Assembly (NCBI GenBank): GCA_903902325.1
Contig: CAIUUO010000202.1
Span: forward strand, 6,262 to 70,261
Direction: 5' to 3'
DNA: 64,000 bases
Source: an uncultured Bacteroidia bacterium
Lineage (GTDB): Bacteria; Bacteroidota; Bacteroidia; Bacteroidales; Prolixibacteraceae
Numbering within the stretch: the stretch's first letter is position 1; the number at the start of each line of letters is the position of its first letter. The notes below the pieces were generated by a model, which made no database searches, was not told the origin of the DNA, and saw nothing but the letters and a program-made list of their open reading frames with translations. Below are positions 4,589 through 63,917 of the stretch, piece after piece. The translations under genes and the position numbers were made by a program.

Positions 4589-4713
4589 CGGTAGTTGACT
4601 TTGTTAATAGAAATTATTGCAAACATACACAGATCGTTGCAGATGAACTTCCTGAATCTTAACGAATAGTAAACATTTTTGGTTTTGAACTTTGTATAGG
4701 ATGTTCTCCTTTT

Positions 4714-5628
4714 TCAGGATTTGAACTCATCAAACAGTTTCAGTCCGTTGCTCCTTTTGATGATATAGATGTAGGCGATTGCTGTCCAGAACGAAAACAA
4801 AGCATAGATCAGGGAAGGTTTGACCATGTCCTGATTATGGAGCAATGTGCCGGCCACGAGAAAAGCTAGTGTTGTATTCTGCACGGCGGCCTCAATCCCG
4901 ATGGTACACGAGTTCCTCACTCCCAGTCCGGACGATCTGCTGAACCTGAATCCCCACAGCATTGAAAGGGCATTCTGCAAAAAGGCAAAGGGCAGAATGA
5001 TGAATACCTCCTTCATGGTAATGCCTGACCCACCGCTGTTTTCAGTTGCAAAAAATTTGATAAGGAAGACGGCACCCAGTGCGACGAGCAGTATCAATTT
5101 CAGCGGATGCTGTGCTTTTATAGCAAAAGCAGGCCTGTATGATCTGACAAGTACTCCGATGACAGCGGGCACAATAGTAACTGAGAATATCTGGATGATG
5201 GTTTCAATGTACGATAAGTGGATCTCGGTGGATTTTCCATAATAAAAAACGAGACTTAAATTGACGATGAGCGGAATGGTAAGCAGGGTGATAAAACTGT
5301 TGATGGAAGTAAATGTAATGGACAAGGCCGCGTTTCCCTTGAAGAAATAGGTAAGGAAACCTGATACGGTGCCTCCCGGACAGGAAGAGAGAATAATCAA
5401 TCCGACCTTGAAAGGAAGCGGCAGATTGGAGAGCCATGTAATTGTAAATGCAATAATCGGCAGGACAATTATTTGAGAGGATAATCCCGTGATCAGTGCT
5501 TTGGGATAGAAGAATACGTTCTTGAAGCTAGTGGATGTCAGCGACAATCCTACGCCAAACATGATAAAGGCCAGCACAAGGCTTATCACGAAATCAATGT
5601 AGGAATAGTGCGGAAGTGACATGATCAA
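4714..5628 (-). CDS. Bile acid:sodium symporter (BASS/SBF-like) family transporter
   Basis: 304 aa and polytopic, with SBF-like motifs SSCPGGTVSGF and QNTTLAFLVAG. Its start lies 5 nt after the stop of the upstream synthetase gene, which suggests an operon. Confidence 0.8.
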   Translation of the reverse strand: MIMSLPHYSYIDFVISLVLAFIMFGVGLSLTSTSFKNVFFYPKALITGLSSQIIVLPIIAFTITWLSNLPLPFKVGLIILSSCPGGTVSGFLTYFFKGNAALSITFTSINSFITLLTIPLIVNLSLVFYYGKSTEIHLSYIETIIQIFSVTIVPAVIGVLVRSYRPAFAIKAQHPLKLILLVALGAVFLIKFFATENSGGSGITMKEVFIILPFAFLQNALSMLWGFRFSRSSGLGVRNSCTIGIEAAVQNTTLAFLVAGTLLHNQDMVKPSLIYALFSFWTAIAYIYIIKRSNGLKLFDEFKS

Positions 5629-5633
5629 TTTTT

Positions 5634-8600
5634 TTAATGTTTTTGTGCAGGAGCGCCTACAAAAATATTATTTGCTGGCAATGTTTCACTTTTCATCAGT
5701 ACGGAGAGCGGCTCCAGAATTGAGCCATCCTCCATTTTTGAATCATACAAAACTACTGACATCCCACCAACACTGCAATGTTTACCAATATCAACATACG
5801 ACATTTTCATCACACGGTCTTCAAAAAGATGGGTTTGCAGGGTGCAATTATCGTTTGCCATGGCATGGTCCCCTATTTTTACAAGATCAAATTCTGTAAT
5901 CTGGGTAGTATTGATGCATACTCTTTTCCCTATTTTACAACCCAGCAGTCTTAGGGGGAATTTAATGAACGGGGTGCCTGTCAGCATATTAAGGAAGAAA
6001 AGTACCAGGAAATTCTCGTATAGTCCCGTAACGAGTTCACTTCTCCAGACATAATTGCTCCAAAGTGGTTTGTTGGCCGGTTTGTAACGTCCGATGATAA
6101 TCCATTTGAATACAGCAGTAATGATTGTTCCCAATATTCCCGCACCCAGATATAGAAAAGGGAAGAGGGCGAACAGAACAAACAGGTCATATTCGACCTG
6201 TAAATAGGAGGTGATATTGGAGATCAGGGAAGCCATGGCAAGAAACATGACCGCAGGAAGGGTTACACGGAAAAATTCGATGCTGTAGCGCAGAATGAAT
6301 AATTTCCTAGTGGGTTTATAGGTTCTTTCCGCAGAAAATTCGTGATTAATATCCCTTTTTGGAAGGTAAACAGCGGGTGATCCGAACCAGGAAGTTCCGT
6401 GTTTTGCAGGAAGGTCCTTATCCGGGACTTTTGACAAAACACCAACCAGGACATCGTCGCCTAGAACGGTATTGGGACTTATCACCGCACTGTTCCCAAC
6501 GAAGGTTCTGTTGCCAATGTAAGTTTTTGCGATGGTGATGTAACCATTTCGAACGCTGGAAGCGCCGATGGAAACAGAGTCGGCCAGAAAACACTCATCC
6601 CCGGTGACCAATAGGTCCGGTGAAATAAATTCGACGGTGGAAATTTCCACCCTTTTACCCATCTTCACTCCCAGCATTTTGAACCAGAATTGCAAATACA
6701 GGGTTGTGTACATGGTACCGAGCACCTGAAGGCTGAGTTTCATCAACTGGTCGAAGAACCATTTCCTGTGGTAAAAACCGCTGTTGACACGGTAAACTCC
6801 CTCCTTTATGTTCCCAAGCAAAATCCATTTAAGCAAGGTAATGATCAGCACAAGTATAACAACGAAAAGCACCCCGACAAGGAAAATATGCGGCAATAAT
6901 GTGATCCATGACTCTTCATTGCTGTAATCGAAATGTGTAATCACCATCATGCCCGGGAAATAGGCAATCATGGTAATAAGGGGGATCAGGAACACGCTGA
7001 AGGCATAGAAAAAATTACGTTTTGACCAGGGAGGAACTGCTTCCTGGTAATTATTCATTCCAATTCTCCTTGCCGGTGAGCCTCCCCAGTTTTCGCTGCT
7101 TGGTATTACGGCCCCTTCCGGAACAAGTGTCAGATCTTCAATCGAGGAGTTTATCTCCATCCTGGTATTGTGACCAAGACAACATCTTGTGCCAACATAG
7201 CAGTTGCTTTCCAATTCAATGGTACCGATATCCAGATAACCATCTGCGATCGTGAATCCTTTTAGGTGAGAGTCTGTGCAGATACTGACATTGTTTCCCA
7301 GGTGAAAAAGGTCGAAGGCCGAGATGGCTGAGGTGTTGATGTAACAATTTTTACCCACTTTGGCACCCAAAAGCCTCAGGAATACATTCATAATCGGAGT
7401 ACCCGTAAAATAGGAGATAGGTGATATGTTGACGAGTTTGTCGGCCAGCCAGAACCTGAAGTAATACATTCCCCAAACCTTGTATCTTCCGGGTTTGATT
7501 TTCCCAATAACCAGCCATTTGAGCGTAATGGCGAAAAAAGTGATTGCAGGAAGGAGTGAAAAATAAGTTAAAAGCATCATCAGAAGGGAATCTATCACGG
7601 TATATTCTGCCTGGTAGAAGTAAGAATATACAAAGAATGGCCCCATCCATTCGATACCGAAAATGAGCGCAATAAAAAGCATGGACAGCCCCTGTAAAAA
7701 TCCACAGGAATAGTAGCTCCACATGGAAGGAGTGTTTACATCGCGCGGCTTGTCAGGAGTTTTACCTGAAGAAGGCCGTTTATTTTCGAGCGCCGTGGCA
7801 AGGTCAGAAAGTACCGGATGTTTGTACAAATCAACCACCGACAGGTTTTCAAACATCGGATTTTTACGCAGATCAGACGATATAAGTGCCGCCAAAAGGG
7901 AATGTCCCCCAAGATCTTCAAAGAAATTGTCATCCATCGAGATGTCGGAACGATGGATGTTTCTAGCAATTGCCTCAACCAATTTCTTTTCAAGATCCGT
8001 AACCGGAAGGATGAACTCTTTCTGGGCAGAAAATGAAAGGGGAATTTCAGGAGCAGGCAATCGTTTCCTGTCAACCTTCTGGCTGGTCGTCATCGGAAGT
8101 GCAGGAAGCACATCCAGGGTTGAAGGAATCATGTAATAGGGCAGTTTTGCACGAAGTCCTGCAGCAATCTCCTCCCTGTTGATTTCCACATTCTTTTCGA
8201 TCATTACATAGGCAGCCAGCTGCTGAGTGTCAACATCCAGCGAAACTACGGCGGCACGTATCCCCGGTGACTGAAGCAATAAACCTTCAATTTCAGCCAG
8301 CTCAACCCTGAATCCGCGAACCTTGACCTGTGCATCTACACGGCCAACGTAAATTATTTCGCCTTCAGCATTGTATTTTGCAATATCCCCGGTACGGTAA
8401 TATCTTTCAGGAGCGCCAATGAAACGATCGGTTTCCAGAAATTTTTGTACTGTCAGGTCATCCCTGTGGAGATATCCCCTGGCAATGCTCTCGCCACCCA
8501 AAAGAATCTCGCCTTCCTCATTCACCCCGACAGGCTCAAGATTTTCATTGACAATGAGGACTTCATATCCGGGCAATGCTTTCCCAATCGTGACGGCACA

Positions 8601-9533
8601 ACTCTCGTTCAGCAGTGAATAGGTGGCAATCACTGTAGCCTCGGTAGGTCCGTAGGTGTTGTAGACCATTCTCCCTGGCTTGCACCATCTGTGGGCAAGA
8701 TCAGATGAACAGACTTCCCCTCCGAATATTAAAATCTTCAGAGCCGGAATATCTTCCGTGACCATGGATAACAAGGTTGGGGCACAGGAAAGAAAAGTAA
8801 TATGGAGTTGGTTTAAAAGTGCAGCAAACTGATCGCCCGATCGCATGATGTCGTATGTTCCGACTACTAGCGTGGCGCCTACTGAAAACGGTACCCAAAT
8901 TTCCTCGACAGAGGCATCAAAAGAGACTGAAAATCCCTGTAAAGCCCTGTAAGAGTTGTCGATGGGATAGATGATTTGTGCACCCCTGATATAATTGGTC
9001 ACATTGCGGTGTTCCAGCAAGACGCCTTTTGGTTTCCCTGTCGTTCCTGAGGTATATATGATATAACAAAGGTTGTCGGGGCTCCTGTTCTCCACCCTTG
9101 GTTCCGTATCAGGCAAGGATTTAAGCGAATCCCATTGCTCATCAATGTTGAACAATGGTTGAGGTTTTAACCCGTTAGAAATTCTCTCCAGAATTTCATT
9201 GGACGTGACAAGAACCTTTGCTCCTGAATCCTCCATGATGAAATTTACCCTCTCGGCAGGAATCTCAGGATCAAGCGGGATGTATGCGCCTCCGGCTTTT
9301 AATACTCCGAGCATCATGATGTAGACTTCGGCACAACGCGGCAGCAGGATGACAACCTTTTCTTCCGGAGCTATGCCTTTTTCAATCAGAAAATGCGCAA
9401 ACCGATTGGCAAGTGTATTGGTTTCGGCATAGGTAAATCTCTTCGCTCCCTGCTCGATGGCGATCGCATTCGGGTATCTGACAGCTGATTGTTTGAAATA
9501 CTGATCTAGAAATTTACATCCCTGTCCATCCAT
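5634..9533 (-). CDS. Pls-like single-module NRPS (adenylation + carrier domain + three membrane-flanked tandem C-terminal domains); putative homopoly(amino acid) synthetase
   Basis: 1299 aa. AMP-binding core motifs: YIIYTSGTTGKPKGV, NTYGPTEAT, YRTGDI, GRVDAQVKVRGFRVELAEIE, SQKVDRKRL. Carrier motif: DLGGHSLLA. After these come three hexapeptide/beta-helix-like soluble segments, each preceded by hydrophobic TM pairs and ending in a G(S/A)PA motif (NWGGSPA, SWFGSPA, FVGAPA). There is no condensation or thioesterase domain. Confidence 0.85.
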   Translation of the reverse strand: MDGQGCKFLDQYFKQSAVRYPNAIAIEQGAKRFTYAETNTLANRFAHFLIEKGIAPEEKVVILLPRCAEVYIMMLGVLKAGGAYIPLDPEIPAERVNFIMEDSGAKVLVTSNEILERISNGLKPQPLFNIDEQWDSLKSLPDTEPRVENRSPDNLCYIIYTSGTTGKPKGVLLEHRNVTNYIRGAQIIYPIDNSYRALQGFSVSFDASVEEIWVPFSVGATLVVGTYDIMRSGDQFAALLNQLHITFLSCAPTLLSMVTEDIPALKILIFGGEVCSSDLAHRWCKPGRMVYNTYGPTEATVIATYSLLNESCAVTIGKALPGYEVLIVNENLEPVGVNEEGEILLGGESIARGYLHRDDLTVQKFLETDRFIGAPERYYRTGDIAKYNAEGEIIYVGRVDAQVKVRGFRVELAEIEGLLLQSPGIRAAVVSLDVDTQQLAAYVMIEKNVEINREEIAAGLRAKLPYYMIPSTLDVLPALPMTTSQKVDRKRLPAPEIPLSFSAQKEFILPVTDLEKKLVEAIARNIHRSDISMDDNFFEDLGGHSLLAALISSDLRKNPMFENLSVVDLYKHPVLSDLATALENKRPSSGKTPDKPRDVNTPSMWSYYSCGFLQGLSMLFIALIFGIEWMGPFFVYSYFYQAEYTVIDSLLMMLLTYFSLLPAITFFAITLKWLVIGKIKPGRYKVWGMYYFRFWLADKLVNISPISYFTGTPIMNVFLRLLGAKVGKNCYINTSAISAFDLFHLGNNVSICTDSHLKGFTIADGYLDIGTIELESNCYVGTRCCLGHNTRMEINSSIEDLTLVPEGAVIPSSENWGGSPARRIGMNNYQEAVPPWSKRNFFYAFSVFLIPLITMIAYFPGMMVITHFDYSNEESWITLLPHIFLVGVLFVVILVLIITLLKWILLGNIKEGVYRVNSGFYHRKWFFDQLMKLSLQVLGTMYTTLYLQFWFKMLGVKMGKRVEISTVEFISPDLLVTGDECFLADSVSIGASSVRNGYITIAKTYIGNRTFVGNSAVISPNTVLGDDVLVGVLSKVPDKDLPAKHGTSWFGSPAVYLPKRDINHEFSAERTYKPTRKLFILRYSIEFFRVTLPAVMFLAMASLISNITSYLQVEYDLFVLFALFPFLYLGAGILGTIITAVFKWIIIGRYKPANKPLWSNYVWRSELVTGLYENFLVLFFLNMLTGTPFIKFPLRLLGCKIGKRVCINTTQITEFDLVKIGDHAMANDNCTLQTHLFEDRVMKMSYVDIGKHCSVGGMSVVLYDSKMEDGSILEPLSVLMKSETLPANNIFVGAPAQKH

Positions 9534-9662
9534 GAATACACCCTTTTTTGAAACAAATAAATATAGTGCTTTTCTTTGTGGTATGACACATCAGTTAAAT
9601 CCAAAATTATTAAATTCGAAAACCCGAAATAACTAGTTGACACCTTAATTCAATCCCATCCA

Positions 9663-12428
9663 ATGAGCAAAAAATTTCCCCTTGGATTCCTGCTTTTATT
9701 GTTTTCAATCGCGCTCTCCAGTGCACAAACATTGCCATCCCCAAAACAGCATTTTGGATTTTCAATAGGTGAAAATTATAAATTGGCAACCTATACCCAA
9801 ACTGAAGCCTGGTTTAAAAAAATCGCATCCGCCTCCAACCGGACAAGCCTTGTTGACATGGGTCAGACCGAAGAGGACAGAACCCAGTACATGATGGTCA
9901 TTTCCTCGCCCGAAAACATTAAAAATCTGGGCAAATACAAGGAAATTGCACAAAAAATGGCCCATGCAGAGCAACTTACAGACGCTGAGGCACAGAAACT
10001 GGCCACCGAAGGGAAGGCCGTTGTCTGGATCGATGGTGGACTTCATGCCACGGAAACTGTGGGGACGCATCAACTTATTGAAACGATTTGGAATCTGGTA
10101 AGCAGAAATGATCCGGAAACCCTGCGGATTCTGGACGAAGTGATCATTTTACTGGCGCACGCAAATCCTGACGGACAGGAACTAGTTTCCAACTGGTACA
10201 TGGGCAATCCGGATACGCTGAAAAGATCCTACGCACAACTCCCAAGGCTCTATCAGAAATACATTGGCCACGACAACAACAGGGATTTCTACATGATGAA
10301 CATGAAGGAGACCCAAAACATCAGCAGGCAACTCTATGTGGAATGGATGCCCCAGATCATATACAACCACCATCAGGCCGGACCTGCAGGCTCAGTCGTA
10401 GCCGGACCTCCCTACCGGGATCCGTTCAATTACCTGTTTAACCCGCTCGTGATCACAGGGATCGATGCCGTTGGAGCTGCCATGATCAACAGGTTGAACG
10501 CGGAAGGCAAACCGGGATATACTGAACGGGGTGGCTCAGTATTTTCGACCTGGTACAATGGCGGATTAAGGACAACCTCCTATTTCCACAACATCATCGG
10601 AATCCTTACGGAGATTATAGGTAATCCGACACCTTCTTCCATCCCGCTTGTTCCGGCGCGTTTGCTCCCCAGCGAAAACACTCCTTTCCCTGTGATGCCC
10701 CAAAAATGGCTTTTCAGGCAGTCGATTGATTACTCCGTATCCCTGAATTATGCCATCCTCGATTATGCGGCCAGAAACAGGGAACACCTGCTTTACAATA
10801 TTTATACCATGGGAAAAAATTCCATTCTCGCCGGGAACCGGAACAACTGGACCATCTCCTCCAAACGTGTGGATGCTATAAGTAACGCCTTTAAAAATAG
10901 TCCCAAAAGCAGAAAAAGTACTGACAGTACCAACAACGCCGGAAGGGAAAGAGTAGATACCATTCCAATGAAATACTGGGATGTTGTTTTTAAGGACTCG
11001 ACCCTCCGGGATCCGCGCGGCTATATCATCACTGCCGACCAGCCCGACTTTCCTACTGCGGTTAAGTTTGTCAATGCCCTGATACGATCAGGAATACACC
11101 TACACAAGGCAAGCGCAGATTTCACGGTAGATGGGAAAAAATATCCGGCAGGTTCCTTTGTGGTAAAGACAAACCAGGCTTTCCGTCCTCACGTCCTTGA
11201 TATGTTTGAACCTCAGGATCATCCCAATGATTTTCTTTACCCCGGGGGACCGCCGGTCAAGCCTTACGACATCTCGGGCTGGACACCTGCCTATTCCATG
11301 GGAATTCAGTTTAGCAGGATCCTGAAGGCTTTCGACGGACCTTTCCTGGCCATTCCCTACGGAGAAATTCAATCACCGGCAGGAGCCATTGCCTCCTCTT
11401 CAGGTGCAGGTTACATTCTGGATTCAAGATGTGATAATTCGTTTGTCGCAGTCAATGAGTTACTTCGTTCGGGAGTTGAGGTATTCAGGATCAAGAATCA
11501 GACAGGCATCAAACCTCAGGTTGGCCAGGGTTCATTTTTTGTGCCATCCGGCAGCAAAGCCAGGCAGGTTTTGCAAAAGGCTACGGCTGACCTAAGTCTC
11601 CGTATAGTTTCAGTCTCCAAAAAACCGGATCAGCTTACCGGGAAGATTTCCTCTCTGCGCATCGGGTTATGGGATACTTATGGAGGCTCCATCTCCGCCG
11701 GTTGGTTGAAATGGATCATGGAACAGCATCAGTTTGCCTTCAAACCCGTTTATGCCAGGGAGATTGATGAAGGGAATCTCAGGAAGAAATACGATGTGCT
11801 GATTTTTGTAGGCGGAGCGATCCCTCCTGTGAAAGGAAGTGAACCGGCCGGACCGAAGGATACGACCAAAATCACGGATATTCCTGCCGACTACAGGTAC
11901 CAGTGGGGCAAAATTACCGCGGATACCTCCGTGGTGCAACTTAAAAAGTTCATGGAAGCAGGCGGTACAGTGGTTACGATCGGCAGAAGCGCCAATCTGG
12001 CGTACCATTTGAAACTGGCGGTGAAGAACGCCCTCGAGGAGATGAACAAAGGGAAGCTTACTCCGCTATCCTCCGATAAATTTTATATTCCCGGCAGCAT
12101 CCTGAGGGTCGCAGTCGATTCAGCACAGACATCCGGCTGGGGAATGGCCGCGCGTGCGGACGTCTTCTTCGATTCGAGTCCGGTTTTCAGGCTAATGCCG
12201 GAAACTGCCGGTCAAAGGAAAGTCACTCCGATAGCGTGGTTCGATTCTGCACTGCCTCTTCGAAGCGGCTGGGCTTTCGGCCAGGAATACCTGCAGGACG
12301 GAGTTGTTGCCTTCGAAGCCAAAGTTGGTTCGGGTAAGATATTCGCTTTCGGACCCGAAATAACTTTTAGGGCACAGACATACAATACCTTCAAATTGCT
12401 GTTCAATGAGCTTTATTCGGGGTACTAG
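9663..12428 (+). CDS. M14 family zinc metallopeptidase (carboxypeptidase-like), secreted, with a long C-terminal extension
   Basis: 921 aa with a signal peptide. Carries HATETVG (HxxE zinc ligands) and LAHANPDGQE, typical of M14 peptidases. Confidence 0.85.
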   Translation: MSKKFPLGFLLLLFSIALSSAQTLPSPKQHFGFSIGENYKLATYTQTEAWFKKIASASNRTSLVDMGQTEEDRTQYMMVISSPENIKNLGKYKEIAQKMAHAEQLTDAEAQKLATEGKAVVWIDGGLHATETVGTHQLIETIWNLVSRNDPETLRILDEVIILLAHANPDGQELVSNWYMGNPDTLKRSYAQLPRLYQKYIGHDNNRDFYMMNMKETQNISRQLYVEWMPQIIYNHHQAGPAGSVVAGPPYRDPFNYLFNPLVITGIDAVGAAMINRLNAEGKPGYTERGGSVFSTWYNGGLRTTSYFHNIIGILTEIIGNPTPSSIPLVPARLLPSENTPFPVMPQKWLFRQSIDYSVSLNYAILDYAARNREHLLYNIYTMGKNSILAGNRNNWTISSKRVDAISNAFKNSPKSRKSTDSTNNAGRERVDTIPMKYWDVVFKDSTLRDPRGYIITADQPDFPTAVKFVNALIRSGIHLHKASADFTVDGKKYPAGSFVVKTNQAFRPHVLDMFEPQDHPNDFLYPGGPPVKPYDISGWTPAYSMGIQFSRILKAFDGPFLAIPYGEIQSPAGAIASSSGAGYILDSRCDNSFVAVNELLRSGVEVFRIKNQTGIKPQVGQGSFFVPSGSKARQVLQKATADLSLRIVSVSKKPDQLTGKISSLRIGLWDTYGGSISAGWLKWIMEQHQFAFKPVYAREIDEGNLRKKYDVLIFVGGAIPPVKGSEPAGPKDTTKITDIPADYRYQWGKITADTSVVQLKKFMEAGGTVVTIGRSANLAYHLKLAVKNALEEMNKGKLTPLSSDKFYIPGSILRVAVDSAQTSGWGMAARADVFFDSSPVFRLMPETAGQRKVTPIAWFDSALPLRSGWAFGQEYLQDGVVAFEAKVGSGKIFAFGPEITFRAQTYNTFKLLFNELYSGY

Positions 12429-12623: not shown

Positions 12624-13973
12624 ATGTCTCTTTCAATTGTCCCTTTTATTGTGAGTCTGGTTTTTTTGAATCGGTTCAGGAGATTTTCCAGGGCGAACGG
12701 ACTACTGCATTGGGAGATGCTTTTCAGATACGCCCTTCTTCTTTCCGTTGCCCTCTTTATTACCGGCATGGTATTTAAATCGGAAGACTTTACGAAGTGG
12801 CTATGGCATATTTACCTGATCGTACTGGTTGTCTTTCCCTTGCAGCAGAAAGAGTTCCGACCGTTGCGCAACTTTATTTCGGCATTCATCCCCTATGTAC
12901 TGATATCGGTTGTAAGTGATTTGACAGAAGTCATCAATGCAGACTTTTTCAAGACAACCGAAACGTATTTCAAAAATATCACGGCGCTGACCTATATCTG
13001 GATGATTGCCCTGTTTTACAGCCAGAACAGGCAAAATAAGGCAGCAGAAAGAGAACGCATAAAAAGATTGCATGAGGATGAACTCAACAAGGTAATCGCC
13101 GCGAGGAAGGTTGAGCTGGAAGTCCTGGTGCAGGAGCGTACCGTCGAACTTACGAAACAGAAAGAGGAACTGGAAAATACGCTTGAAGAGTTGCGAGCCA
13201 CTCAGTCGCAACTGATCCAGTCCGAAAAGATGGCATCTCTGGGCGAACTCACCGCAGGTATTGCCCACGAAATCCAGAACCCGCTCAATTTCGTCAACAA
13301 TTTTTCGGAAGTGAGTGTTGAACTGCTGGATGAGATGCAGGCAGAGATTGGGCGGGGGAATTCGGAGGAGGTAAAACAAATTGTGACCGACCTGAAACAA
13401 AACCTCGAAAAGATCAACCATCATGGCAAGCGTGCCGACAGTATTGTCAAGGGGATGCTGCAGCATTCAAGAACCAGCACCGGACAAAAGGAACCGACGG
13501 ATATCAATGCCCTGGCAGATGAATACCTGCGACTGGCCTATCATGGACTAAGGGCCAAGGATAAATCATTCAATGCGAAGTTTGAAACTGATCTGGACCC
13601 AAACCTGGGAAAGATCAATGTGATACCGCAGGACATGGGCAGGGTGATCCTGAATTTGCTCACCAACGCCTTCTATGCAGTAACCGAGAAAAAGAAATTG
13701 CTGGGAGAATCATTTCAGCCCTCTGTGACCATTAGCACCAGGAAGATGGGTAAAAATGTTGAAATCAGGGTGACAGACAACGGGAATGGAATCCCTGAAA
13801 AAATCATTGATAAAATTTTTCAGCCCTTCTTTTCAACGAAACCGACCGGCAAAGGAACAGGACTGGGCCTTTCCCTTTGTTATGAGATAGTCACCAAGGG
13901 GCATGGAGGTGAATTGAGCGTCGAAACAAAAGAAGGTGAGGGTTCTATATTCATTTGTACCTTACCCTTGTAA
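12624..13973 (+). CDS. Sensor histidine kinase (multi-TM N-terminus, HisKA + HATPase_c)
   Basis: 449 aa with N-terminal hydrophobic helices and a coiled-coil linker. H-box EKMASLGELTAGIAHEIQNPLNF. N/G boxes: LLTNAFYA, DNGNGIP, GTGLGLSLCYEIV. Confidence 0.85.
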   Translation: MSLSIVPFIVSLVFLNRFRRFSRANGLLHWEMLFRYALLLSVALFITGMVFKSEDFTKWLWHIYLIVLVVFPLQQKEFRPLRNFISAFIPYVLISVVSDLTEVINADFFKTTETYFKNITALTYIWMIALFYSQNRQNKAAERERIKRLHEDELNKVIAARKVELEVLVQERTVELTKQKEELENTLEELRATQSQLIQSEKMASLGELTAGIAHEIQNPLNFVNNFSEVSVELLDEMQAEIGRGNSEEVKQIVTDLKQNLEKINHHGKRADSIVKGMLQHSRTSTGQKEPTDINALADEYLRLAYHGLRAKDKSFNAKFETDLDPNLGKINVIPQDMGRVILNLLTNAFYAVTEKKKLLGESFQPSVTISTRKMGKNVEIRVTDNGNGIPEKIIDKIFQPFFSTKPTGKGTGLGLSLCYEIVTKGHGGELSVETKEGEGSIFICTLPL

Positions 13974-13986
13974 ACATGATTGAAAG

Positions 13987-14367
13987 ATGAATAAGATTCT
14001 GGTTGTTGACGATGAGAGAGATATTCAGACCTTGTTTGAACAGCATTTCAGAAAGGAGATCAGGCATGGAGAAGTTCAGTTCGTCTTCTCGTTTTCGGGA
14101 GAGGAGGCGCTGACTTACATGTACGAACATGAGCAGGAGGCTGTCCTGATCTTGTCGGATATCAATATGCCCGGCATGAGTGGACTTGAATTGCTGAAAC
14201 ACATCAAGGAGAAGTACGAAAAACCGCCACCTGTGGTCATGATGATCACTGCCTATGGCGATGATGATAATTACAGGACGGCAATGAGACTGGGAGCAGA
14301 TGATTTTCTGACCAAACCATTGGACTTCAAATCACTCAAGGAGAAATTAAAAACCACGCTCTTATGA
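13987..14367 (+). CDS. Stand-alone response regulator receiver (CheY-like)
   Basis: 126 aa. Carries ILVVDDE, the phospho-acceptor context LILSDINMPGMSG, and a conserved K in LTKPL. Confidence 0.9.
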   Translation: MNKILVVDDERDIQTLFEQHFRKEIRHGEVQFVFSFSGEEALTYMYEHEQEAVLILSDINMPGMSGLELLKHIKEKYEKPPPVVMMITAYGDDDNYRTAMRLGADDFLTKPLDFKSLKEKLKTTLL

Positions 14368-15395
14368 TTAAAATATTAATTGTCGATGATGAAACTGATC
14401 TGGAGATCCTCATCAGGCAGAAATTCCGCAAGAAAATCAGGGAACAGGACTATGAATTTGTTTTTGCTGTGAATGGAAATGATGCATTAAAAAAAATGGC
14501 AGAGTTTCCGGATGTGGAGATCGTATTAAGCGATATCAACATGCCGGAAATGGATGGTTTAACCTTGCTGACAAAACTCAGCGAAAGCAATCCTTTGGTG
14601 AAAACTGTAATGGTATCGGCTTATGGCGACATGGAAAACATCCGCAAGGCCATGAACCGGGGGGCCTTCGATTTTGTGACGAAACCTGTTGATTTTGATG
14701 ATCTGGAATTGACGATGGAGAAGACGATCCAGCACGTGAAACAGATCAGGGAGACATTGCGTGCCATCAAGGAGAACAACATCCTGAAAATGTACGTGGA
14801 TGAGAATGTGCTCAATTTCATGGGCAGCAGGGAATATGAAACATCCATCATGGTCAATGAAACAGTGGAAGCGACAGTAGCGTTCATTGATATCTGCAGT
14901 TTTACCTCCATAAGTGAAAAAGAGACCCCGGATACGGTAGTTTCCCTGTTAAACAGGTATTTCGACCTGATGGTAAAGGAGATTATTGCCCAGCAGGGGA
15001 TCGTCGACAAATTTATGGGAGATTGCCTGATGGCTGTATTCAAGGGACCTTACCATCCCGACAGGGCCATTGACGCTTGCCTGGCCATCCGAAGCAAAAT
15101 TGAAGAACTTCAGGGGCATGTCGATTTCATGCCAAAAGTTTCCATTGGGATCAACAGCGGTGAAATGATTTCTGGAAATATAGGTTCTGCAACTTTGCGC
15201 CGGCTTGATTATACGGTGATTGGAGATGCCGTGAATACAGCAGAGCGATTGCAAAGAGCAGCTGGTGATGGTCAGATTGTTATTTCAGAAGCAGGCTATG
15301 AAAGGGTGAAACAATCGTTCAACTGCAGGCCAATTGGTCCGGCAGTCCTGAAAAACAAAGCAGAAGAGGTGATGCTTTACGAAGTCCTGAATTAA
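14364..15395 (+). CDS. Response regulator receiver fused to a class III nucleotidyl (adenylate/guanylate) cyclase domain
   Basis: 343 aa. REC motifs: ILIVDDE, LSDINMPEMDG, VTKPV. Cyclase motifs: VAFIDICSFTSISE, DKFMGDCLMAVF, GINSGEMISGNIGS, DYTVIGDAVNTAERL. A 4-nt ATGA overlap links it to the upstream REC gene. Confidence 0.9.
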   Translation: MIKILIVDDETDLEILIRQKFRKKIREQDYEFVFAVNGNDALKKMAEFPDVEIVLSDINMPEMDGLTLLTKLSESNPLVKTVMVSAYGDMENIRKAMNRGAFDFVTKPVDFDDLELTMEKTIQHVKQIRETLRAIKENNILKMYVDENVLNFMGSREYETSIMVNETVEATVAFIDICSFTSISEKETPDTVVSLLNRYFDLMVKEIIAQQGIVDKFMGDCLMAVFKGPYHPDRAIDACLAIRSKIEELQGHVDFMPKVSIGINSGEMISGNIGSATLRRLDYTVIGDAVNTAERLQRAAGDGQIVISEAGYERVKQSFNCRPIGPAVLKNKAEEVMLYEVLN

Positions 15396-15413
15396 TATTT
15401 AAATTGAGTCAAC

Positions 15414-16874
15414 ATGCAATATGACCAGGTACATTCCTTCCTGATTCAGAAACTCGAGGATAGTTTGCCTTCTTATCTTACTTACCATGATGCAGGCCAT
15501 ACGAGGAACGTCATCGAAGCAGCCGGACATCTGGCTATAGCTGAAAACATCACCGGGGAAGATCTGGTTTTGCTGAAGACTGCTGCCTTGTTCCATGATT
15601 CAGGGTATATGCAGATTTACAAGGGGCATGAAGAGGTTTCCTGCAACCTGGCCAGAAAATGCTTGCCCGAGTACGGATATACTCCTGTACAGATTGAAAC
15701 CATTTGCCGGCTGATCATGGCTACCAGGTGGCCGGCCAAACCAACCGACTTGCTGGAGAAGATACTTTGCGATGCCGATATGTATTACATCGGAACGGAA
15801 CATTATACCTTCTACGCGGAGAAATTGTATCTTGAATTGAAGAAAAATGGTTCCGTTAAAACAAAAGTCGAATGGTTATTGCAACAGGTGGAGTTTCTTT
15901 CAGCGCATAAATTTCACACACAAACCGCTGTCAATGAAAGAGAAGCGGTAAAAATAAAAGAATTGCACCAGCTACAGATGCAGCTTGAATCCGCGGTTTC
16001 TGTTTCCAATAAGATGAAGCCCGGCGAGTTGATCCAGGATATACTGCTGATGATGATCGGCGTCGTTTTTGCCGGTTACGCCTTGAAAGGATTCCTGGTG
16101 CCGAACCGTTTTTTTGACGGTGGCATCACGGGCATCTCGCTCCTTGTCCATGAATTGTACGGATTCAATCTGGCCATTGTGATTTTCCTGCTAAACCTGC
16201 CTTTCGTGGTGGTAAGTTATTTTTCTGTCAGTCACAGGTTTGCCTTATGGACGTTTTTCAGTGTGATCCTGTTGGGCATCTGTCTTACCTTGTTGCCCGA
16301 TGTGGCAATCACAAAGGATAAATTGCTGATCTCTATTTTTGGGGGGGTATTCCTCGGAATAGGTATCGGCCTAATCATGCGTGCTGGGGCTGCCCTGGAC
16401 GGAATCGAAGTGCTTGCACTCTATACCCTGAAGCGAACCTCCTTTACCATCACTGAAATAATTTTGGGGATCAATGTCCTCATCTTTGCTGTCGCTGCCC
16501 TCAAGTTTGGGGTGGAAACTGCCTTATATTCGATCCTGACCTATTTTTCTGCTACCAGATGCATCGATTATGTCGTAGAAGGGATTCAGGCATTTACAGG
16601 CGTGACCATTATCTCCGCCAAAAGTGAGTTGATCAAGTACAAGCTGGTCAATGAACTTGGAAGGGGTATTACAATTTACAAAGGACAAAGAGGGTTTCTT
16701 CCCGGAAAATTTGAAATCAGTGCGGATTGCGACATCATCTTCACGGTTATCTCGAGACTTGAACTCCGGAAACTCAAGAACCTTGTCTACAACGAAGACC
16801 CAAAAGCCTTTGTCTTTGCCAATACCATCAAAGAAGCTTCCGGTGGCATCATCAGCCGAAGACATCATCATTGA
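15414..16874 (+). CDS. HD-domain phosphohydrolase fused to a YitT-family membrane protein (DUF161 TM region + DUF2179 C-terminal domain)
   Basis: 486 aa. N-terminal H...HD...D pattern: YHDAGHTRNV, LFHDSGY, CDADMYYIG. The central region has YitT-like TM helices (FLVPNRFFDGGITGISLLV). The C-terminal soluble domain is typical of YitT (ITIYKGQRGF ... FTVISRLELRKLKNLV). Confidence 0.75.
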   Translation: MQYDQVHSFLIQKLEDSLPSYLTYHDAGHTRNVIEAAGHLAIAENITGEDLVLLKTAALFHDSGYMQIYKGHEEVSCNLARKCLPEYGYTPVQIETICRLIMATRWPAKPTDLLEKILCDADMYYIGTEHYTFYAEKLYLELKKNGSVKTKVEWLLQQVEFLSAHKFHTQTAVNEREAVKIKELHQLQMQLESAVSVSNKMKPGELIQDILLMMIGVVFAGYALKGFLVPNRFFDGGITGISLLVHELYGFNLAIVIFLLNLPFVVVSYFSVSHRFALWTFFSVILLGICLTLLPDVAITKDKLLISIFGGVFLGIGIGLIMRAGAALDGIEVLALYTLKRTSFTITEIILGINVLIFAVAALKFGVETALYSILTYFSATRCIDYVVEGIQAFTGVTIISAKSELIKYKLVNELGRGITIYKGQRGFLPGKFEISADCDIIFTVISRLELRKLKNLVYNEDPKAFVFANTIKEASGGIISRRHHH

Positions 16875-52370: not shown

Positions 52371-52699
52371 GAAAGGTTGAAGTGAAGATCCATGATCGAA
52401 CAGCCGGTTGGCTAATGCAGGATGAGACAGGGTATCATTTTAGGTATGATGCCATTTATCTGGAATCGTCAGAAAAGGAACCGGTCAGTCTGACCCTTCC
52501 TTTGAATAAAATCTCCTTTTCAAGCAAGGTACTCTTTCCATTTTTTGATGGACTGATTCCCGAGGGATGGCTGCTTGATATCGCTGAGAGGAATTGGAAA
52601 CTGAATCCCCGCGACCGCATGGGATTGTTGATGGCATGTTGCGGGGATTGTATCGGAGCAGTAAGTATTTATCCTGTTAAGGAGGAGGATCAAACATGA
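52367..52699 (+). CDS. hipS: HipA N-terminal-subdomain protein (HipS-like)
   Basis: 110 aa. Carries TAGWLMQDETGYHFRYDAIY and FFDGLIPEGW, typical of the HipA N-terminal (couple_hipA) domain. A 4-nt overlap links it to both neighbours. Confidence 0.75.
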   Translation: MRKVEVKIHDRTAGWLMQDETGYHFRYDAIYLESSEKEPVSLTLPLNKISFSSKVLFPFFDGLIPEGWLLDIAERNWKLNPRDRMGLLMACCGDCIGAVSIYPVKEEDQT

Positions 52700-53643
52700 A
52701 AAGATGTTTGTATTGTTATCAGCAGCTAAAGGAAGACGAAAAGGATTTTCACGCCCGGTGCAGCAAAAAAATCTTTGGACTATCCACGCCTCCGCAGTTG
52801 GACTATTCTGAATCAGAAATGGAAAAGCTGGCAGGGGAGGTCGTTCGCAGTCAAATTGCTTTAACGGGAGTGCAACCTAAGATTTCATTGGAACTCTCCT
52901 CTCTAAAAAACAGAAACGAGCCACGAAGATTTACAATTGTAGGTTTGTGGGGTGGATATATCTTAAAACCGCCGACCTTCAGGTATCCTCAATTGCCAGA
53001 AGTTGAAGATTTAACCATGCATCTGGCAAGGATTGCAAAAATAGATGTTGTGCCACATTGCCTCATCCGGCTCCGGTCAGGGAATCTGTCCTATATTACC
53101 AAGCGCATTGATCGTTCAGGCATTGGGAAAATCCACATGGAGGACATGTGCCAGTTGACTGAAAAATTAACAGAAGATAAATACCACGGTTCCTACGAGC
53201 AGATAGCCAAAACCATATTGAGATATTCTGCCAACCCCGGACTGGACGTAATTAATTTCTTCGAGTTGGTGCTTTTTTCCTTTCTCACAGGCAATGCAGA
53301 TATGCATTTAAAGAATTTTTCTTTGATCCATAAGCCTGAAACCGGATCAGTCCTCTCACCTGCCTATGACCTGGTTGCGACAGCGCTTGTCAATCCAGCC
53401 GATGATGAGGATTGTGCATTGATGCTGAATGGCAAAAAGAAAAAATTAAAGCGCAAGGATTTTGTTGTGGCATTCACCACCCTGAAACTGGATCCAAAAC
53501 AGCAGGAGTCTATTTTCAGGAAAATGGAGAATGCAAAAGACAAATGGATGGAATTTATCGATATCAGTTTCCTGAGCGATGATTTCAAGGAGAGTTACAA
53601 ACAATTGATATGTGAAAGATTTCTTAGACTTTCACTAAAGTAA
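52696..53643 (+). CDS. hipT: HipA-family Ser/Thr kinase core (HipT-like toxin)
   Basis: 315 aa. Nucleotide-loop region LTGVQPKISL, catalytic loop GNADMHLKNFSL and Mg-binding SPAYDLV. The N-terminus has a Cys/His motif (CLYCYQQL ... FHARCSKK). Confidence 0.8.
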   Translation: MKRCLYCYQQLKEDEKDFHARCSKKIFGLSTPPQLDYSESEMEKLAGEVVRSQIALTGVQPKISLELSSLKNRNEPRRFTIVGLWGGYILKPPTFRYPQLPEVEDLTMHLARIAKIDVVPHCLIRLRSGNLSYITKRIDRSGIGKIHMEDMCQLTEKLTEDKYHGSYEQIAKTILRYSANPGLDVINFFELVLFSFLTGNADMHLKNFSLIHKPETGSVLSPAYDLVATALVNPADDEDCALMLNGKKKKLKRKDFVVAFTTLKLDPKQQESIFRKMENAKDKWMEFIDISFLSDDFKESYKQLICERFLRLSLK

Positions 53644-54842: not shown

Positions 54843-56969
54843 ATGAAAACCTACACCTCGACATTTGGAATTATTCTGTTAGGACTGATCATCACATTGA
54901 TAATCTGCTGTAAAAAAGAATCACCTAAAGTTGAACCGACAGTAACTTTAACAACTGCAACCAATATTACAGCTAATTCAACAACTTCAGGCGGTTCGGT
55001 AACCGCTGATGGAGGAGATCAAGTAACAGCAAGAGGTGTTTGTTGGAGTTCTACTAATGCGACTCCCACGACTTCAGATAATAAAACAACCGATGGAACG
55101 GGAACTGGTTTTTTCTCAAGCTCATTATCTGGATTAACACAAGGAACAACATACAATATACGGGCTTACGCTACAAACTCTGTTGGAACAGGATATAGTA
55201 GTGCGACTTCATTCAAAACGCTGGCTCTAGCTCCAACGCTAACAACAACTGATTTATCAGCAGTAACAGCTACTTCATTCAACAGTGGTGGAAATATTAC
55301 CAATGATGGAGGGTCGCCTGTTACTGCCAGAGGAGTTTGCTGGAGCATTAATCAAAATCCAACCTTTTCAGACAGTAAAACCTCAGATGGAACAGGAACA
55401 GGAATTTTCACAAGTTCAGTTACGGGATTAGCAGCTGGAACTACATACTATGCTAGGGCATATGCGACAAACAGCATCGGTACAACTTATGGAAACCAAT
55501 TAACGTCAAAGACATCTGCTGTTGTTCCAACCCTGACAACTACGGTTGCATCATCCATTACATCAACGACAGCCACCAGTGGTGGTAATATCACTTCAGA
55601 CGGAGGTGGAGCAATCTCGATCAGAGGAGTCTGTTGGGGTACTACAGCCAGTCCAACAACTACTGGTAGTAAAACTTCTGATAACACTGGAACGGGTAGT
55701 TTCACAAGTTCTATTACTGGACTAACAGCCAATACAACCTATTATGTCAGGGCTTATGCTACAAATAGTGCTGGTACAGCATACGGTAGTGAAATTTCCT
55801 TCAAAACTTCAGCAAAACTTCCAACTCTGACAACTACTGCTGTTACAGCTATTACCAATACAACAGCTTCAAGTGGCGGAAATGTTACAAATGACGGGGG
55901 GGCAACAATTAGTGCCAGAGGAGTTTGCTGGAGTACCAGTCAGAATCCAACCACAACAGACAATAAAACAGCAGACGCAACTGGTACTGGGGTATTCACG
56001 AGTTCCATTACCGGTTTAACAGCTAATACCACTTATTACATTAGGGCTTATGCCTCCAATAGTGCTGGTACAGCTTATGGGAATCAGGTGTCTGCTACAA
56101 CGACCAATACTCCAACTGGCCTTGCTGATGTATATTATGGTAAAGTGGCCGTTGGTGGATCATTTATGCCAACCGCAGAATATATAAAAGCAAATTTCAA
56201 CAGAGCAAGTGGTGAAGTTGGTGGTTATCCAATACCTAAAAAATACCAATTTGATACTACTCCTGGGCAATATATATACTTTGTTTATAAAGATTCTCCT
56301 TCAGGTGTTGGATATGGTTATAGGGCAATAAATTGGGTTAGAGTACCTGGGGCTTGTGGTTCATCACAAATCGCTGGCTATGGCGTGGGATCAGTTTATA
56401 GTTATAAACAAATTGATCCGCCAACTACCCAAATTCTTTGTGCAGGTACTTTTTTTGTTCAATATTACGGGAAAATTGATATTGATGGTACGATTTATAG
56501 AGTTTGGAAATCAGGATTGGCGAATGTTGATCCAGTTGTAGAAGTATTTTCTATTCCGGACAATCCATCTGGACTTGCTGATGTTTATTATGGTATAAGC
56601 ACAGATACACAAGTAACTGCTGATTATATTTTAACAAATTTCACAAAGACCACTGGACCCGTTGGTACTCCAACAGGTAAACAATATACATTTGGAGACA
56701 CATTTAATACATATAGATTTTGGGCTATTCCTGATCTTCCAAATACGGGTGAACGAGTAATAGCTAATCTTACAACATCAGATGGCTTGGCTGTTATAGG
56801 TCTTCAACCAGGCGGAACTTTTTATACCTATTATCAAAATAACCCTACTCCACCTTCTCAATCCATACAATACGGGAAATTGGACATCAATGGGATCACA
56901 TATAGATTGTATAGAACAACACTTAAATATACAAGTACTACAACTCAATTTCGAGTCTATTCATTTTGA
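54843..56969 (+). CDS. Surface lipoprotein with four about 93-aa Fn3-like tandem repeats and a duplicated C-terminal domain of unknown function
   Basis: The ORF opens at 54807, but the likely start is MKTYTSTFGIILLGLIITLIICCKKE (lipobox). There are four repeats of the pattern TTxxxTxITxTTAxSGGNxTxDGGxxxxARGVCWSxxxNPTxxDxKTxDGTGTGxFTSSxTGLxxxTTYYxRAYATNSxGTxYG. These are followed by two about 150-aa repeats that each start GLADVYYG. Confidence 0.7.
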   Translation: MKTYTSTFGIILLGLIITLIICCKKESPKVEPTVTLTTATNITANSTTSGGSVTADGGDQVTARGVCWSSTNATPTTSDNKTTDGTGTGFFSSSLSGLTQGTTYNIRAYATNSVGTGYSSATSFKTLALAPTLTTTDLSAVTATSFNSGGNITNDGGSPVTARGVCWSINQNPTFSDSKTSDGTGTGIFTSSVTGLAAGTTYYARAYATNSIGTTYGNQLTSKTSAVVPTLTTTVASSITSTTATSGGNITSDGGGAISIRGVCWGTTASPTTTGSKTSDNTGTGSFTSSITGLTANTTYYVRAYATNSAGTAYGSEISFKTSAKLPTLTTTAVTAITNTTASSGGNVTNDGGATISARGVCWSTSQNPTTTDNKTADATGTGVFTSSITGLTANTTYYIRAYASNSAGTAYGNQVSATTTNTPTGLADVYYGKVAVGGSFMPTAEYIKANFNRASGEVGGYPIPKKYQFDTTPGQYIYFVYKDSPSGVGYGYRAINWVRVPGACGSSQIAGYGVGSVYSYKQIDPPTTQILCAGTFFVQYYGKIDIDGTIYRVWKSGLANVDPVVEVFSIPDNPSGLADVYYGISTDTQVTADYILTNFTKTTGPVGTPTGKQYTFGDTFNTYRFWAIPDLPNTGERVIANLTTSDGLAVIGLQPGGTFYTYYQNNPTPPSQSIQYGKLDINGITYRLYRTTLKYTSTTTQFRVYSF
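54942..56105 (+). repeat. Intragenic tandem DNA repeats (about 280-bp period, 4 copies)
   Basis: These DNA repeats encode the four Fn3-like modules of the lipoprotein. Recurring strings include ggagtttgctggag and acaacttattatgt/acatactatgc. Confidence 0.75.
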
Positions 56970-57012
56970 TGAATTTTGGAATCTAGGAAATTCAATATAA
57001 TATATTTACATT

Positions 57013-57975
57013 ATGCATTTAGATGATTTAATTAGAGATGAAGCAATCCTTATTAGATATATTAAAAAGTCAATTGCTGACTCAATAGATTTGGTTGTTG
57101 ATAAGTGTACAGGACTTGGAAATATTCCGCAAGAACCTGATTTTGTTGCTTCACTTGTTATAAATTTCACTCCAGAATTGCTCAAAATAATGCAAGTTGT
57201 TTTTCCAAATTATAAATTTGCTTTGACGGGTGTTTTTTGCCATCAGAAGCCACTTGTAAATATTGGACTTTCTACGAATCCTGAAATTGGAGACTTATTA
57301 TTTGTGTATGTTGATACTGATAAAAATAACATAACAAAGCTAAACTCACTTTTATTTCAAGCAAAAGTTACGAGAACTAATTCAATAAATATTCAGAATG
57401 CATTTGCACATCAACTGAAACTGTATTCTGAATGGCCTGATTTTGAGTATAAAAGAGCTGGTGTACTTAACGGAGTTAAGAGAAAAATACAGCCTAAAAC
57501 ATTAAATGATGGAGCCCAATATCTTCTTATAAACCCTTGTTCATTGTATTATCCTCAAAGGAATGTACGTAGATCCCGAATGGGTTGTTCTATTCCAAAT
57601 AAAAAACTTCAAGTCAACAACGACTTGGCAGTTGAAATATTGGATTTTCTAAAGTTTAAGGCTGGCAGAGCATTTGAGGCTGATCCTTCAATTTCAAATG
57701 ACGACTGGACCAAAATGATATGGGATATTTTGAACATTACCAAAGCTAAGGCTTCAAAAAGAAAAAATTCAGGTATCATAAATTTTCCAAGACAAATGGC
57801 GGCTGAATTTGATGGTTGTTGCTTCATATCCTCAGAGATAAATTCTATCTATCAAGATTTACACAGTGAGTTCAGTTATTGGGACTCAAACAATCAGAAT
57901 GAGATCAAATTTATTGATGAAGATCATATTTCGCTTTCAGTTATAGTCATTGAAAGTAATGAACTGATTGAATGA
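57013..57975 (+). CDS. Orphan hypothetical protein with PD-(D/E)xK-nuclease-like motifs
   Basis: 320 aa. Candidate motifs are EPDF (about aa 41), EIGDLLFVYVD (Asp on a hydrophobic strand), SLLFQAKV ((E/Q)xK) and HQLKLY (QxxxY). Their order and spacing resemble RecB/Cas4-type PD-(D/E)xK cores. This is motif reading only. Confidence 0.45.
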   Translation: MHLDDLIRDEAILIRYIKKSIADSIDLVVDKCTGLGNIPQEPDFVASLVINFTPELLKIMQVVFPNYKFALTGVFCHQKPLVNIGLSTNPEIGDLLFVYVDTDKNNITKLNSLLFQAKVTRTNSINIQNAFAHQLKLYSEWPDFEYKRAGVLNGVKRKIQPKTLNDGAQYLLINPCSLYYPQRNVRRSRMGCSIPNKKLQVNNDLAVEILDFLKFKAGRAFEADPSISNDDWTKMIWDILNITKAKASKRKNSGIINFPRQMAAEFDGCCFISSEINSIYQDLHSEFSYWDSNNQNEIKFIDEDHISLSVIVIESNELIE

Positions 57976-58030
57976 TAAGGAATAAATACACAAGACCAAA
58001 AGAGCTGACAGGCAAATCTAAGTTTCAAAA

Positions 58031-62871: not shown

Positions 62872-63082
62872 AATTGATTTTAATTTGTTGATATTTAATT
62901 ATTTATAAATTTTTGAATTGGGTTTTTTAAGACAGGGTATTCCCATTAACCCAAAAGTGATTGTTTAAATCCTATTTGGATATTACATCAACTGGTCTTT
63001 CGAGGAATAGGAAGAACCCTGTCTATTTTACAATCGAACCGGTTTCAGTCAATTGTGTAATGGATTAAGTTTCGTCAAATAA

Positions 63083-63830: not shown

Positions 63831-63866
63831 AACCCAATAAATTCCGAAAATGGAACTTATTGGGTT
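63831..63866 (-). terminator. Rho-independent terminator-like hairpin
   Basis: 10-bp stem aacccaataa / ttattgggtt. On the minus strand it is followed by TCATTTTGT. It lies about 50 nt downstream of the partial minus-strand ORF at the window edge. Confidence 0.5.
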
Positions 63867-63917
63867 CTGTATATCTCAATTTTATTCCAGTAATAAATAC
63901 TGGGTATAAGAAATTAT

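Follow-up and report, generated by a model that had tools for sequence, protein, structure and literature searches.

The window analysed here, a stretch of 64,000 nucleotides on contig CAIUUO010000202.1 of an uncultured Bacteroidia bacterium, carries on its minus strand a gene for a protein of 1299 amino acids (aa) that, judging from its sequence, is a genuine membrane-bound single-module peptide synthetase of the known Pls/PosA family. This synthetase is an uncharacterised new addition to a family that has already been annotated, and it probably functions as a stand-alone, membrane-embedded synthetase of a cationic homopoly(amino acid), with L-lysine as the substrate and an epsilon-linked product. 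The gene and its parts are listed below (TM, transmembrane helix).

5634..9533, minus strand: gene of the single-module synthetase of the Pls/PosA family, 1299 aa plus stop, defined by its open reading frame (ORF), its translation and matches to TIGR02353 and TIGR01733.
8058..9512, minus strand: adenylation domain, approximately aa 8-492, from the Pfam families AMP-binding and AMP-binding_C.
7788..7985, minus strand: carrier (thiolation) domain, aa 517-582, from Pfam PP-binding; Ser545 lies in GGHSL and its codon is 7899..7901.
7029..7724, minus strand: repeat unit 1, formed by the TM1/TM2 pair (aa 608-679) and beta-helix domain C1 with its GSPA end at aa 818, from hydropathy, internal BLAST and AlphaFold2.
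6300..7028, minus strand: repeat unit 2, formed by the TM3/TM4 pair (aa 840-911) and beta-helix domain C2 with its GSPA end at aa 1051, from Pfam, hydropathy, internal BLAST and AlphaFold2.
5637..6299, minus strand: repeat unit 3, formed by the TM5/TM6 pair (aa 1085-1148) and beta-helix domain C3 with its GAPA end at aa 1293, from hydropathy, internal BLAST and AlphaFold2.

The N-terminal part of the protein consists of a single adenylation (A) domain followed by a carrier, or thiolation (T), domain. Pfam AMP-binding is matched at aa 13-355 with 284 bits, AMP-binding_C is matched as well, and the NCBIfam model of amino-acid adenylation, TIGR01733, reaches 399 bits (cutoff 317). The core motifs of the A domain are intact (YTSGTTGKPKG, NTYGPTE, YRTGD and the A10 lysine, K486) and invariant among the homologues. 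Pfam PP-binding is matched at aa 517-582 with 30.8 bits against a cutoff of 20.8; the GGHS motif begins at aa 542, and the residues from G542 to S545 are invariant in 17 homologues. The Pfam families Condensation and Thioesterase gave no match in the protein at E<=0.01. A first-pass annotation, made from the letters of the sequence, had described one A domain, one carrier domain with GGHSL and neither a condensation nor a thioesterase domain in this 1299-aa protein, and the Pfam results bear it out on each point.

The C-terminal region is the part that defines the family. The NCBIfam model TIGR02353, named “Pls/PosA family non-ribosomal peptide synthetase”, scores 607.1 bits against a curated cutoff of 423.1, and its match covers aa 613-1296 of the synthetase and positions 2-695 of the 695 in the profile, that is, the model from end to end. 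This result is decisive for membership in the Pls/PosA family. Hydropathy identifies six hydrophobic segments arranged as three pairs (608-637/645-679, 840-867/874-911 and 1085-1108/1113-1148), each of them immediately N-terminal to one soluble stretch. The three units defined in this manner are mutually homologous (25-29% identity, E values of 5e-13 to 4e-26 in unit-to-unit BLAST), so the region is a true tandem triplication. The layout of Pls-type enzymes that had been proposed for this protein, with six TM helices expected, is thus confirmed both by the profile and by the topology. The description of three tandem soluble domains was right in their number, in their beta-helix type and in their G(S/A)PA ends; its other element has to be modified, since the helix pairs precede the domains instead of bracketing them.

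An AlphaFold2 model of aa 601-1299, built with 39 aligned sequences, has a predicted TM-score of 0.81 and a mean predicted local distance difference test score of 77, and in each of the three units it presents the same order of elements: a pair of long helices, one short strand, two to three further helices and, finally, the strands of a beta-helix. This layout agrees with the one published for PosA, in which AlphaFold and RoseTTAFold models place six bent membrane helices beneath three beta-helices with approximate three-fold symmetry (PMC10522769). As both the A and the T domain lie in the cytoplasm and the membrane helices are paired, the topology suggests that all three soluble domains lie there too. 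Searches of the PDB with the C-terminal region by sequence (phmmer) and by fold (Foldseek) return only trimeric left-handed beta-helix acyltransferases, among them maltose O-acetyltransferase, galactoside O-acetyltransferase and serine acetyltransferase, and gamma-carbonic anhydrases; no solved structure of a Pls-type C-terminal region was found in the PDB, by sequence or fold, or in the literature on cryo-electron microscopy.

The substrate was approached through the specificity pocket, which was read at the ten Stachelhaus positions from a MAFFT alignment of the synthetase with 80 homologues and with PosA, taken from the supplement of PMC10522769 as an optical character recognition (OCR) copy holding 1315 of 1332 residues. 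The alignment recovers the published PosA code, DMEHNGTVSK, except at position 6, a residue missing from the OCR copy, and because it does so the mapping of the code is regarded as validated. In the synthetase the ten residues are D206, A207, E210, S249, I269, G271, T293, V301, I302 and K486, that is, DAESIGTVIK. All ten positions are invariant or nearly so in 17 homologues; D206 and E210 (code positions 1 and 3) are invariant within the Bacteroidia clade, and the code is identical in all readable Bacteroidia homologues except L010, which has DAESVGTVVK. Two further loci, L068 and L069, give nonsensical codes (DREHLGPRAR and DGQHDGARRR, respectively) and probably reflect a frameshift or the wrong ORF rather than true variants.

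The published codes provide the key for reading this pocket. The Pls of Streptomyces albulus has DAESIGTVVK and was assigned to lysine by experiment, the Acidobacteria entry PYV28785.1 has DAESIGTVIK and is predicted to be of the lysine type, PosA itself (DMEHNGTVSK) is assigned to ornithine, the enzymes for diaminopropionate and diaminobutyrate have codes beginning with DFE, and the enzyme for beta-lysine has DGESVSVVNK (PMC10522769, Suppl. Table 2). The lysine-type entries of that table fit the pattern DAESIG(T/S)V(V/I)K, with alanine at position 2, and so does the code of the synthetase. As for the roles of the residues, Asp1 and Glu3 of the code bind both amino groups of the diamino acid, while position 2 sets the chain length, being methionine in PosA and alanine in the lysine enzymes; accordingly, the M218A mutant of PosA gains approximately ten-fold in efficiency with lysine (PMC10522769). 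L-lysine is therefore the best-supported substrate as far as the pocket can predict it, since the code is of the lysine type, differs from that of Pls at one position and is conserved, or nearly so, at all ten positions in the Bacteroidia homologues. The partial reading of the pocket (D, A, E) that had pointed to a cationic substrate is upheld by the full code. Because the characterised members of the family all build side-chain (isopeptide) linkages, the product would, as the best inference from analogy, be of the epsilon-poly-L-lysine type.

The distribution of the homologues is consistent with an enzyme that is in use. A protein search returned thousands of matches, the best 120 of which are all 68-100% identical to the synthetase, and a single scan of species-representative genomes separates three tiers. 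The first is a Bacteroidia clade at 64-85% identity, made up of metagenome-assembled genomes (MAGs) labelled Prolixibacteraceae, Paludibacter, Bacteroidaceae, Muribaculaceae, Prevotella sp., Parabacteroides sp., Tannerella sp. and others. Among them, those of the Prolixibacteraceae come closest, sharing syntenic neighbours and having synthetases 79-85% identical, in keeping with the Bacteroidota host assumed at first. The second tier, at 37-45% identity and with the code DAESIGTVIK, comprises Schlesneria and Humisphaera (Planctomycetota), Elusimicrobia, Endomicrobiales, Seinonella, one Alcaligenaceae MAG and one Tatlockia MAG. The third consists of proteobacterial enzymes at 34-36% identity that have either the ornithine code or the unassigned code DLEDLGTVVK. 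The loci with DAESIGTVIK in other phyla are L017, L018 and L026 (Schlesneria), L020 (Humisphaera), L019 (Elusimicrobia), L062 (Endomicrobiales), L029 (Seinonella), L024 and L027.

In a neighbour-joining tree the Bacteroidia clade is monophyletic and adjoins the other lysine-code sequences, and the PosA-like enzymes lie on a separate branch together with the proteobacterial enzymes of the DLEDLGTVVK type. The shared code and the neighbourhood in the tree point to a wider lysine-code lineage outside the actinomycetes. In L041 (Flavipsychrobacter) and L043 (Chitinophagaceae), two further Bacteroidota sequences, the code is DMEHNGTVTK, of the ornithine type, and their place in the tree is with the PosA-like group; since this Chitinophagia branch stands apart from the lysine-code clade, the family is represented in the Bacteroidota by at least two lineages that are unrelated. 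The family itself is large, with 712 representatives matching at E<=1e-30 in a library clustered at 50% identity, and the Bacteroidia clade is one distinct twig of it: the whole clade is a single representative of that library, and the next one is 45% identical in the C-terminal region. Identities of 64-85% maintained over several families point to purifying selection on a working enzyme.

With regard to novelty, the enzyme had been presented as more unusual than it is. The name “Pls/PosA family non-ribosomal peptide synthetase” has already been given by the annotation pipeline PGAP to homologues in NCBI records of Prolixibacteraceae and other Bacteroidota MAGs, the RefSeq entry WP_320037762.1 (uncultured Bacteroides sp.) bears it too, and the study of PosA lists the Bacteroidetes members Chitinophaga and Pedobacter, with the ornithine code, in a family that spans many phyla (PMC10522769). 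A search of the literature found no work on the lysine-code clade of the Bacteroidia, no such polymer from Bacteroidota and no BASS-family transporter as a partner.

From these elements a mechanism can be proposed, in which the catalytic cycle, the isopeptide linkage and the release of the product would follow those of the characterised Pls and PosA. The N-terminal A domain would turn L-lysine into an aminoacyl-AMP and would then load it, as a thioester, onto the phosphopantetheine arm attached to Ser545 of the carrier domain. The C-terminal region, with its three homologous tandem units, each predicted to consist of two paired membrane helices and, after them, a left-handed beta-helix in the cytoplasm, would offer the side-chain amine of a free lysine or of an untethered growing chain to this thioester. 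Each cycle would add one residue, with neither a condensation nor a thioesterase domain being required, and the predicted product is an isopeptide oligomer or polymer of the epsilon-linked poly-L-lysine type. The enzyme would act alone; the genes for a BASS transporter, an M14 peptidase and a GH38 mannosidase that lie near it would represent Prolixibacteraceae synteny and not necessary partners. The gene content of the window fits such a stand-alone enzyme: among the 34 largest ORFs scanned there is no biosynthetic cluster, as is the case for posA, which forms a single-gene operon (PMC10522769), and no lysine-supply gene.

Several points weigh against a lysine polymerase of this kind. The assignment of the Bacteroidia clade is a prediction for a group that includes no member of demonstrated product; specificity codes are imperfect predictors, and the published lysine assignment of DAESIGTVIK is itself a prediction. 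The A domain of the synthetase scores 251 bits against that of Pls (PDB 7wew), in comparison with 324 bits against an ordinary non-ribosomal peptide synthetase A domain (1amu), and the identity to PosA over the full length is just 35% (with the OCR copy). The type of linkage and the length of the chain go beyond what sequence can tell. The AlphaFold2 model has low confidence in part of unit 2 (model aa 432-474). Lastly, the same 34 ORFs include no phosphopantetheinyl transferase, so activation of the synthetase must come from elsewhere in the genome. Even so, taken together the evidence makes the epsilon-linked lysine polymerase the probable reading.

The alternative that survives best keeps the family and changes the chemistry. 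The enzyme could use another diamino acid (ornithine, beta-lysine, diaminobutyrate or arginine), or it could transfer lysine to an envelope lipid, a glycan or a small amine, without making a free homopolymer. The isolation of the clade as a single 50%-identity cluster, with its nearest representative 45% identical in the C-terminal region, leaves room for such a divergence, as does the low identity to PosA; a single conserved gene over many Bacteroidia families would also suit a physiological role in the envelope, and family members with unassigned pockets do exist (PMC10522769). Nevertheless, the pocket of this synthetase can be assigned: it differs from the experimental Pls by one conservative change (V to I) and retains Asp1, Glu3 and Ala2, the residues by which lysine-type members are recognised (PMC10522769), the codes for ornithine, diaminopropionate, diaminobutyrate and beta-lysine (DMEHN.., DFE.. 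and DGESVSVVNK) are clearly different, and an isopeptide homopolymer is made by every characterised family member. A different chemistry is for these reasons considered unlikely.

The other element on which attention had been focused is the neighbour of the synthetase, and the two features concerned, one at either end of the synthetase gene, are given below.

4714..5622, minus strand: gene of a BASS/SBF-family transporter, 302 aa from its ATG, identified by Pfam SBF; the immediate downstream neighbour of the synthetase.
9534..9662, no strand: intergenic spacer, 129 nt long, that separates the divergently oriented genes of the synthetase and the M14 peptidase, defined by sequence and motif search.

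The transporter gene had been said to start 5 nt after the stop codon of the synthetase. At the junction (...CAT TAA AAAAATTGATCATG...) there is indeed a TTG 5 nt past the stop, which would give a gene of 304 aa at 4714..5628, and an ATG 11 nt past it; the ATG is the more likely start, because gene callers chose it on identical public contigs (302 aa). The protein matches Pfam SBF (PF01758) with 103.9 bits against a gathering score of 24.3, and it falls under the cutoffs of both TIGR00841 (“bass”; 149.9 bits against 326.3) and the PanS pantoate transporter model NF047939 (96.3 bits against 400), so it is assigned to neither and its substrate stays unassigned. Characterised BASS members transport organic anions (bile acids, pantoate, pyruvate), and for this reason the protein fits poorly with lysine or a polycation.

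This pairing had been taken as meaningful, with a co-transcribed transporter that could supply the precursor or handle the product; read in this way, synthetase and transporter would form a functional unit, in which the transporter might also handle a counter-ion. The gap of 5-11 nt and the lack of any detected terminator-like hairpin between the two genes favour this idea, and co-transcription is possible as judged from the short gap alone; a match to the Bacteroidetes-type -7 motif, TATTTTTG, 38 nt upstream of the BASS ATG means, on the other hand, that BASS could be transcribed separately as well. Seven loci (L001, L002 and L013 from genomes, L081-L084 from metagenomes), all with synthetases at least 79% identical, preserve the pair and a gap of comparable shortness. 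These are close relatives with shared flanks, the M14 gene being common wherever upstream sequence exists and the GH38 gene being present in two as well, and plain synteny explains the pairing. When BASS, the M14 peptidase and GH38 were searched for by tblastn in all 80 genome loci, BASS directly 3' and M14 divergent 5' of the synthetase were found only in the Prolixibacteraceae loci L001, L002 and L013. Neither gene was found in 14 other Bacteroidia loci with synthetases 64-71% identical (flanks of up to 10 kb), or next to the synthetase in any of the non-Bacteroidia loci.

The converse holds for the transporter. Scanning metagenomes with the BASS sequence yielded 16 loci, four of which, at 83-87% identity, carry the synthetase upstream; no synthetase was found upstream in one locus at 80% identity and ten at 64-68% (L085-L095) in the available DNA of up to 6 kb (2.6-6 kb for several of them), where these BASS orthologues sit amid other genes. 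When the ORFs lying up to 7 kb from the synthetase were all clustered for 24 loci, no neighbour proved to be conserved beyond the Prolixibacteraceae synteny block. Since related lineages have either gene in the absence of the other, the pairing follows the block M14 - synthetase - BASS, with or without GH38; BASS looks like a lineage-restricted neighbour whose functional link to the synthetase is without support. A joint unit is consequently an improbable explanation, the one unusual element claimed for the locus fails as a conserved feature, and the synthetase is best regarded as acting by itself.

On the other side of the synthetase, the 129-nt spacer contains TAATTTTG (minus strand, 9602..9609), which matches the -7 motif of the Bacteroidetes type. 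It is a candidate promoter only, because the window shows no enrichment of the motif TAnnTTTG (61 matches, as against 52 expected by chance); a scan for sigma-70-type promoters came close to the expectation from shuffled sequence, and the sigma-70 model is uninformative for Bacteroidota. Downstream of BASS, the spacer before the GH38 alpha-mannosidase gene (4589..4713, minus strand, 125 nt) has an exact match to the -7 motif, TATGTTTG, 32 nt upstream of the GH38 ATG and no detected terminator-like hairpin; GH38 probably has its own promoter, to judge from this motif.

The divergent gene (9663..12428, plus strand) encodes an M14 zinc carboxypeptidase of 921 aa with an N-terminal signal peptide. 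The idea that it degrades the polymer, in analogy to Pld or PldII of Streptomyces, was considered and set aside; the gene accompanies the synthetase in no loci other than those of the close relatives that also have BASS. One can imagine it trimming or breaking down a lysine polymer, but nothing supports this. Beyond it lies a signalling run (12624..16874, plus strand) with a histidine kinase, a stand-alone receiver, a fusion of a receiver with an adenylate/guanylate cyclase, and a fusion of an HD domain with a YitT membrane part and DUF2179. Synteny with the Prolixibacteraceae relatives L002 and L013 extends over most of this run. The rest of the window, these signalling genes included, is ordinary Bacteroidota chromosome, with a histidine kinase, response regulators, an adenylate cyclase, the HD-YitT fusion, PPK2, SulP, a TonB-dependent receptor, glycoside hydrolases, a PEP carboxylase and several peptidases. 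There is also an ORF for a HipA_C-like kinase at 52696..53643 (plus strand), and two stretches of low G+C content, 56001..58000 (0.34) and 62001..64000 (0.36) as opposed to approximately 0.44 elsewhere, may be acquired DNA.

A last alternative, that the C-terminal 700 aa are a generic hexapeptide acetyltransferase-like fusion devoid of a polymerase role, or that the gene is decaying, could appeal to the weak Hexapep match (aa 1004-1031, inside repeat unit 2), which is all that Pfam gives there, and to the ordinary acetyltransferases among the PDB matches, but the end-to-end TIGR02353 match far above its cutoff leaves it close to refuted, and the intact three units with their TM pairs, the uninterrupted reading frame and the hundreds of positions invariant across 39 homologues make it hardly credible.

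Epsilon-poly-L-lysine has been approved for preserving food, and polycations related to it attract interest both as antimicrobials and as carriers that penetrate cells. The proven producers are actinomycetes and some fungi, together with Acinetobacter in the case of poly-ornithine, and the literature searched contains no proven Bacteroidota producer of such polymers. If the clade makes poly-lysine, anaerobic Gram-negative Bacteroidia from lakes, wetlands and comparable habitats would join the known producers, and one would have to ask by what means a Gram-negative cell exports the polymer or tolerates it. The lysine prediction is what the available family models and the pocket rules in print lead one to expect; it adds to present knowledge without being surprising. 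A bolder proposal is that a mostly uncultured and largely anaerobic Bacteroidia clade keeps one highly conserved lysine-type polymerase whose polycation, instead of being secreted as an antibiotic, would be retained in the periplasm or envelope and serve there as a physiological polymer or modification, a function that in the Prolixibacteraceae would have been linked to an anion symporter. This is speculative and rather improbable; if it were true, it would mean a new biological role for the Pls/PosA family and the first such polymer from Bacteroidota.

The comparison with known systems places the synthetase among several relatives. Within the same phylum and family, the Chitinophagia homologues (Chitinophaga vietnamensis and Pedobacter caeni, listed in PMC10522769, and the loci L041 and L043) differ from it in their ornithine-type code, DMEHNG(S/T)V(S/T)K, in their identity of approximately 36% and in branching with PosA-like enzymes. 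The homologues from Schlesneria, Humisphaera, Elusimicrobia/Endomicrobiales and Seinonella, together with PYV28785.1, have the identical code and are likewise uncharacterised; these lysine-code homologues of other phyla are its nearest relatives outside the Bacteroidia (37-45% identity), and they have no BASS neighbour. PosA of Acinetobacter baumannii (ATY43264.1; PMC10522769) has a full-length identity of 35% to the synthetase, as measured with the OCR copy, and resembles it in its C-terminal layout of six TM helices and three beta-helices (an AlphaFold prediction in both cases), in its Gram-negative host and in being encoded by a stand-alone gene with no biosynthetic cluster. The two enzymes differ in the pocket, where PosA has DMEHNGTVSK, for ornithine, and the synthetase DAESIGTVIK, and where Met218 of PosA, which limits the chain length to ornithine, corresponds to Ala207.

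The Pls of S. albulus (BAG68864.1; A domain PDB 7wew) was compared here through its published code and the sequence of its A-domain structure. Its host is an actinomycete, whereas the synthetase belongs to a Gram-negative and probably anaerobic Bacteroidia lineage, and the similarity between the A domains is modest (251 bits, below GrsA and LgrA). The two proteins belong nonetheless to the same NCBIfam family, TIGR02353, and have the same arrangement, an A and a T domain followed by three repetitions of a TM pair with a tandem domain and neither a condensation nor a thioesterase domain, and their codes coincide at nine of the ten positions (DAESIGTVVK in Pls and DAESIGTVIK here, a change of V to I).

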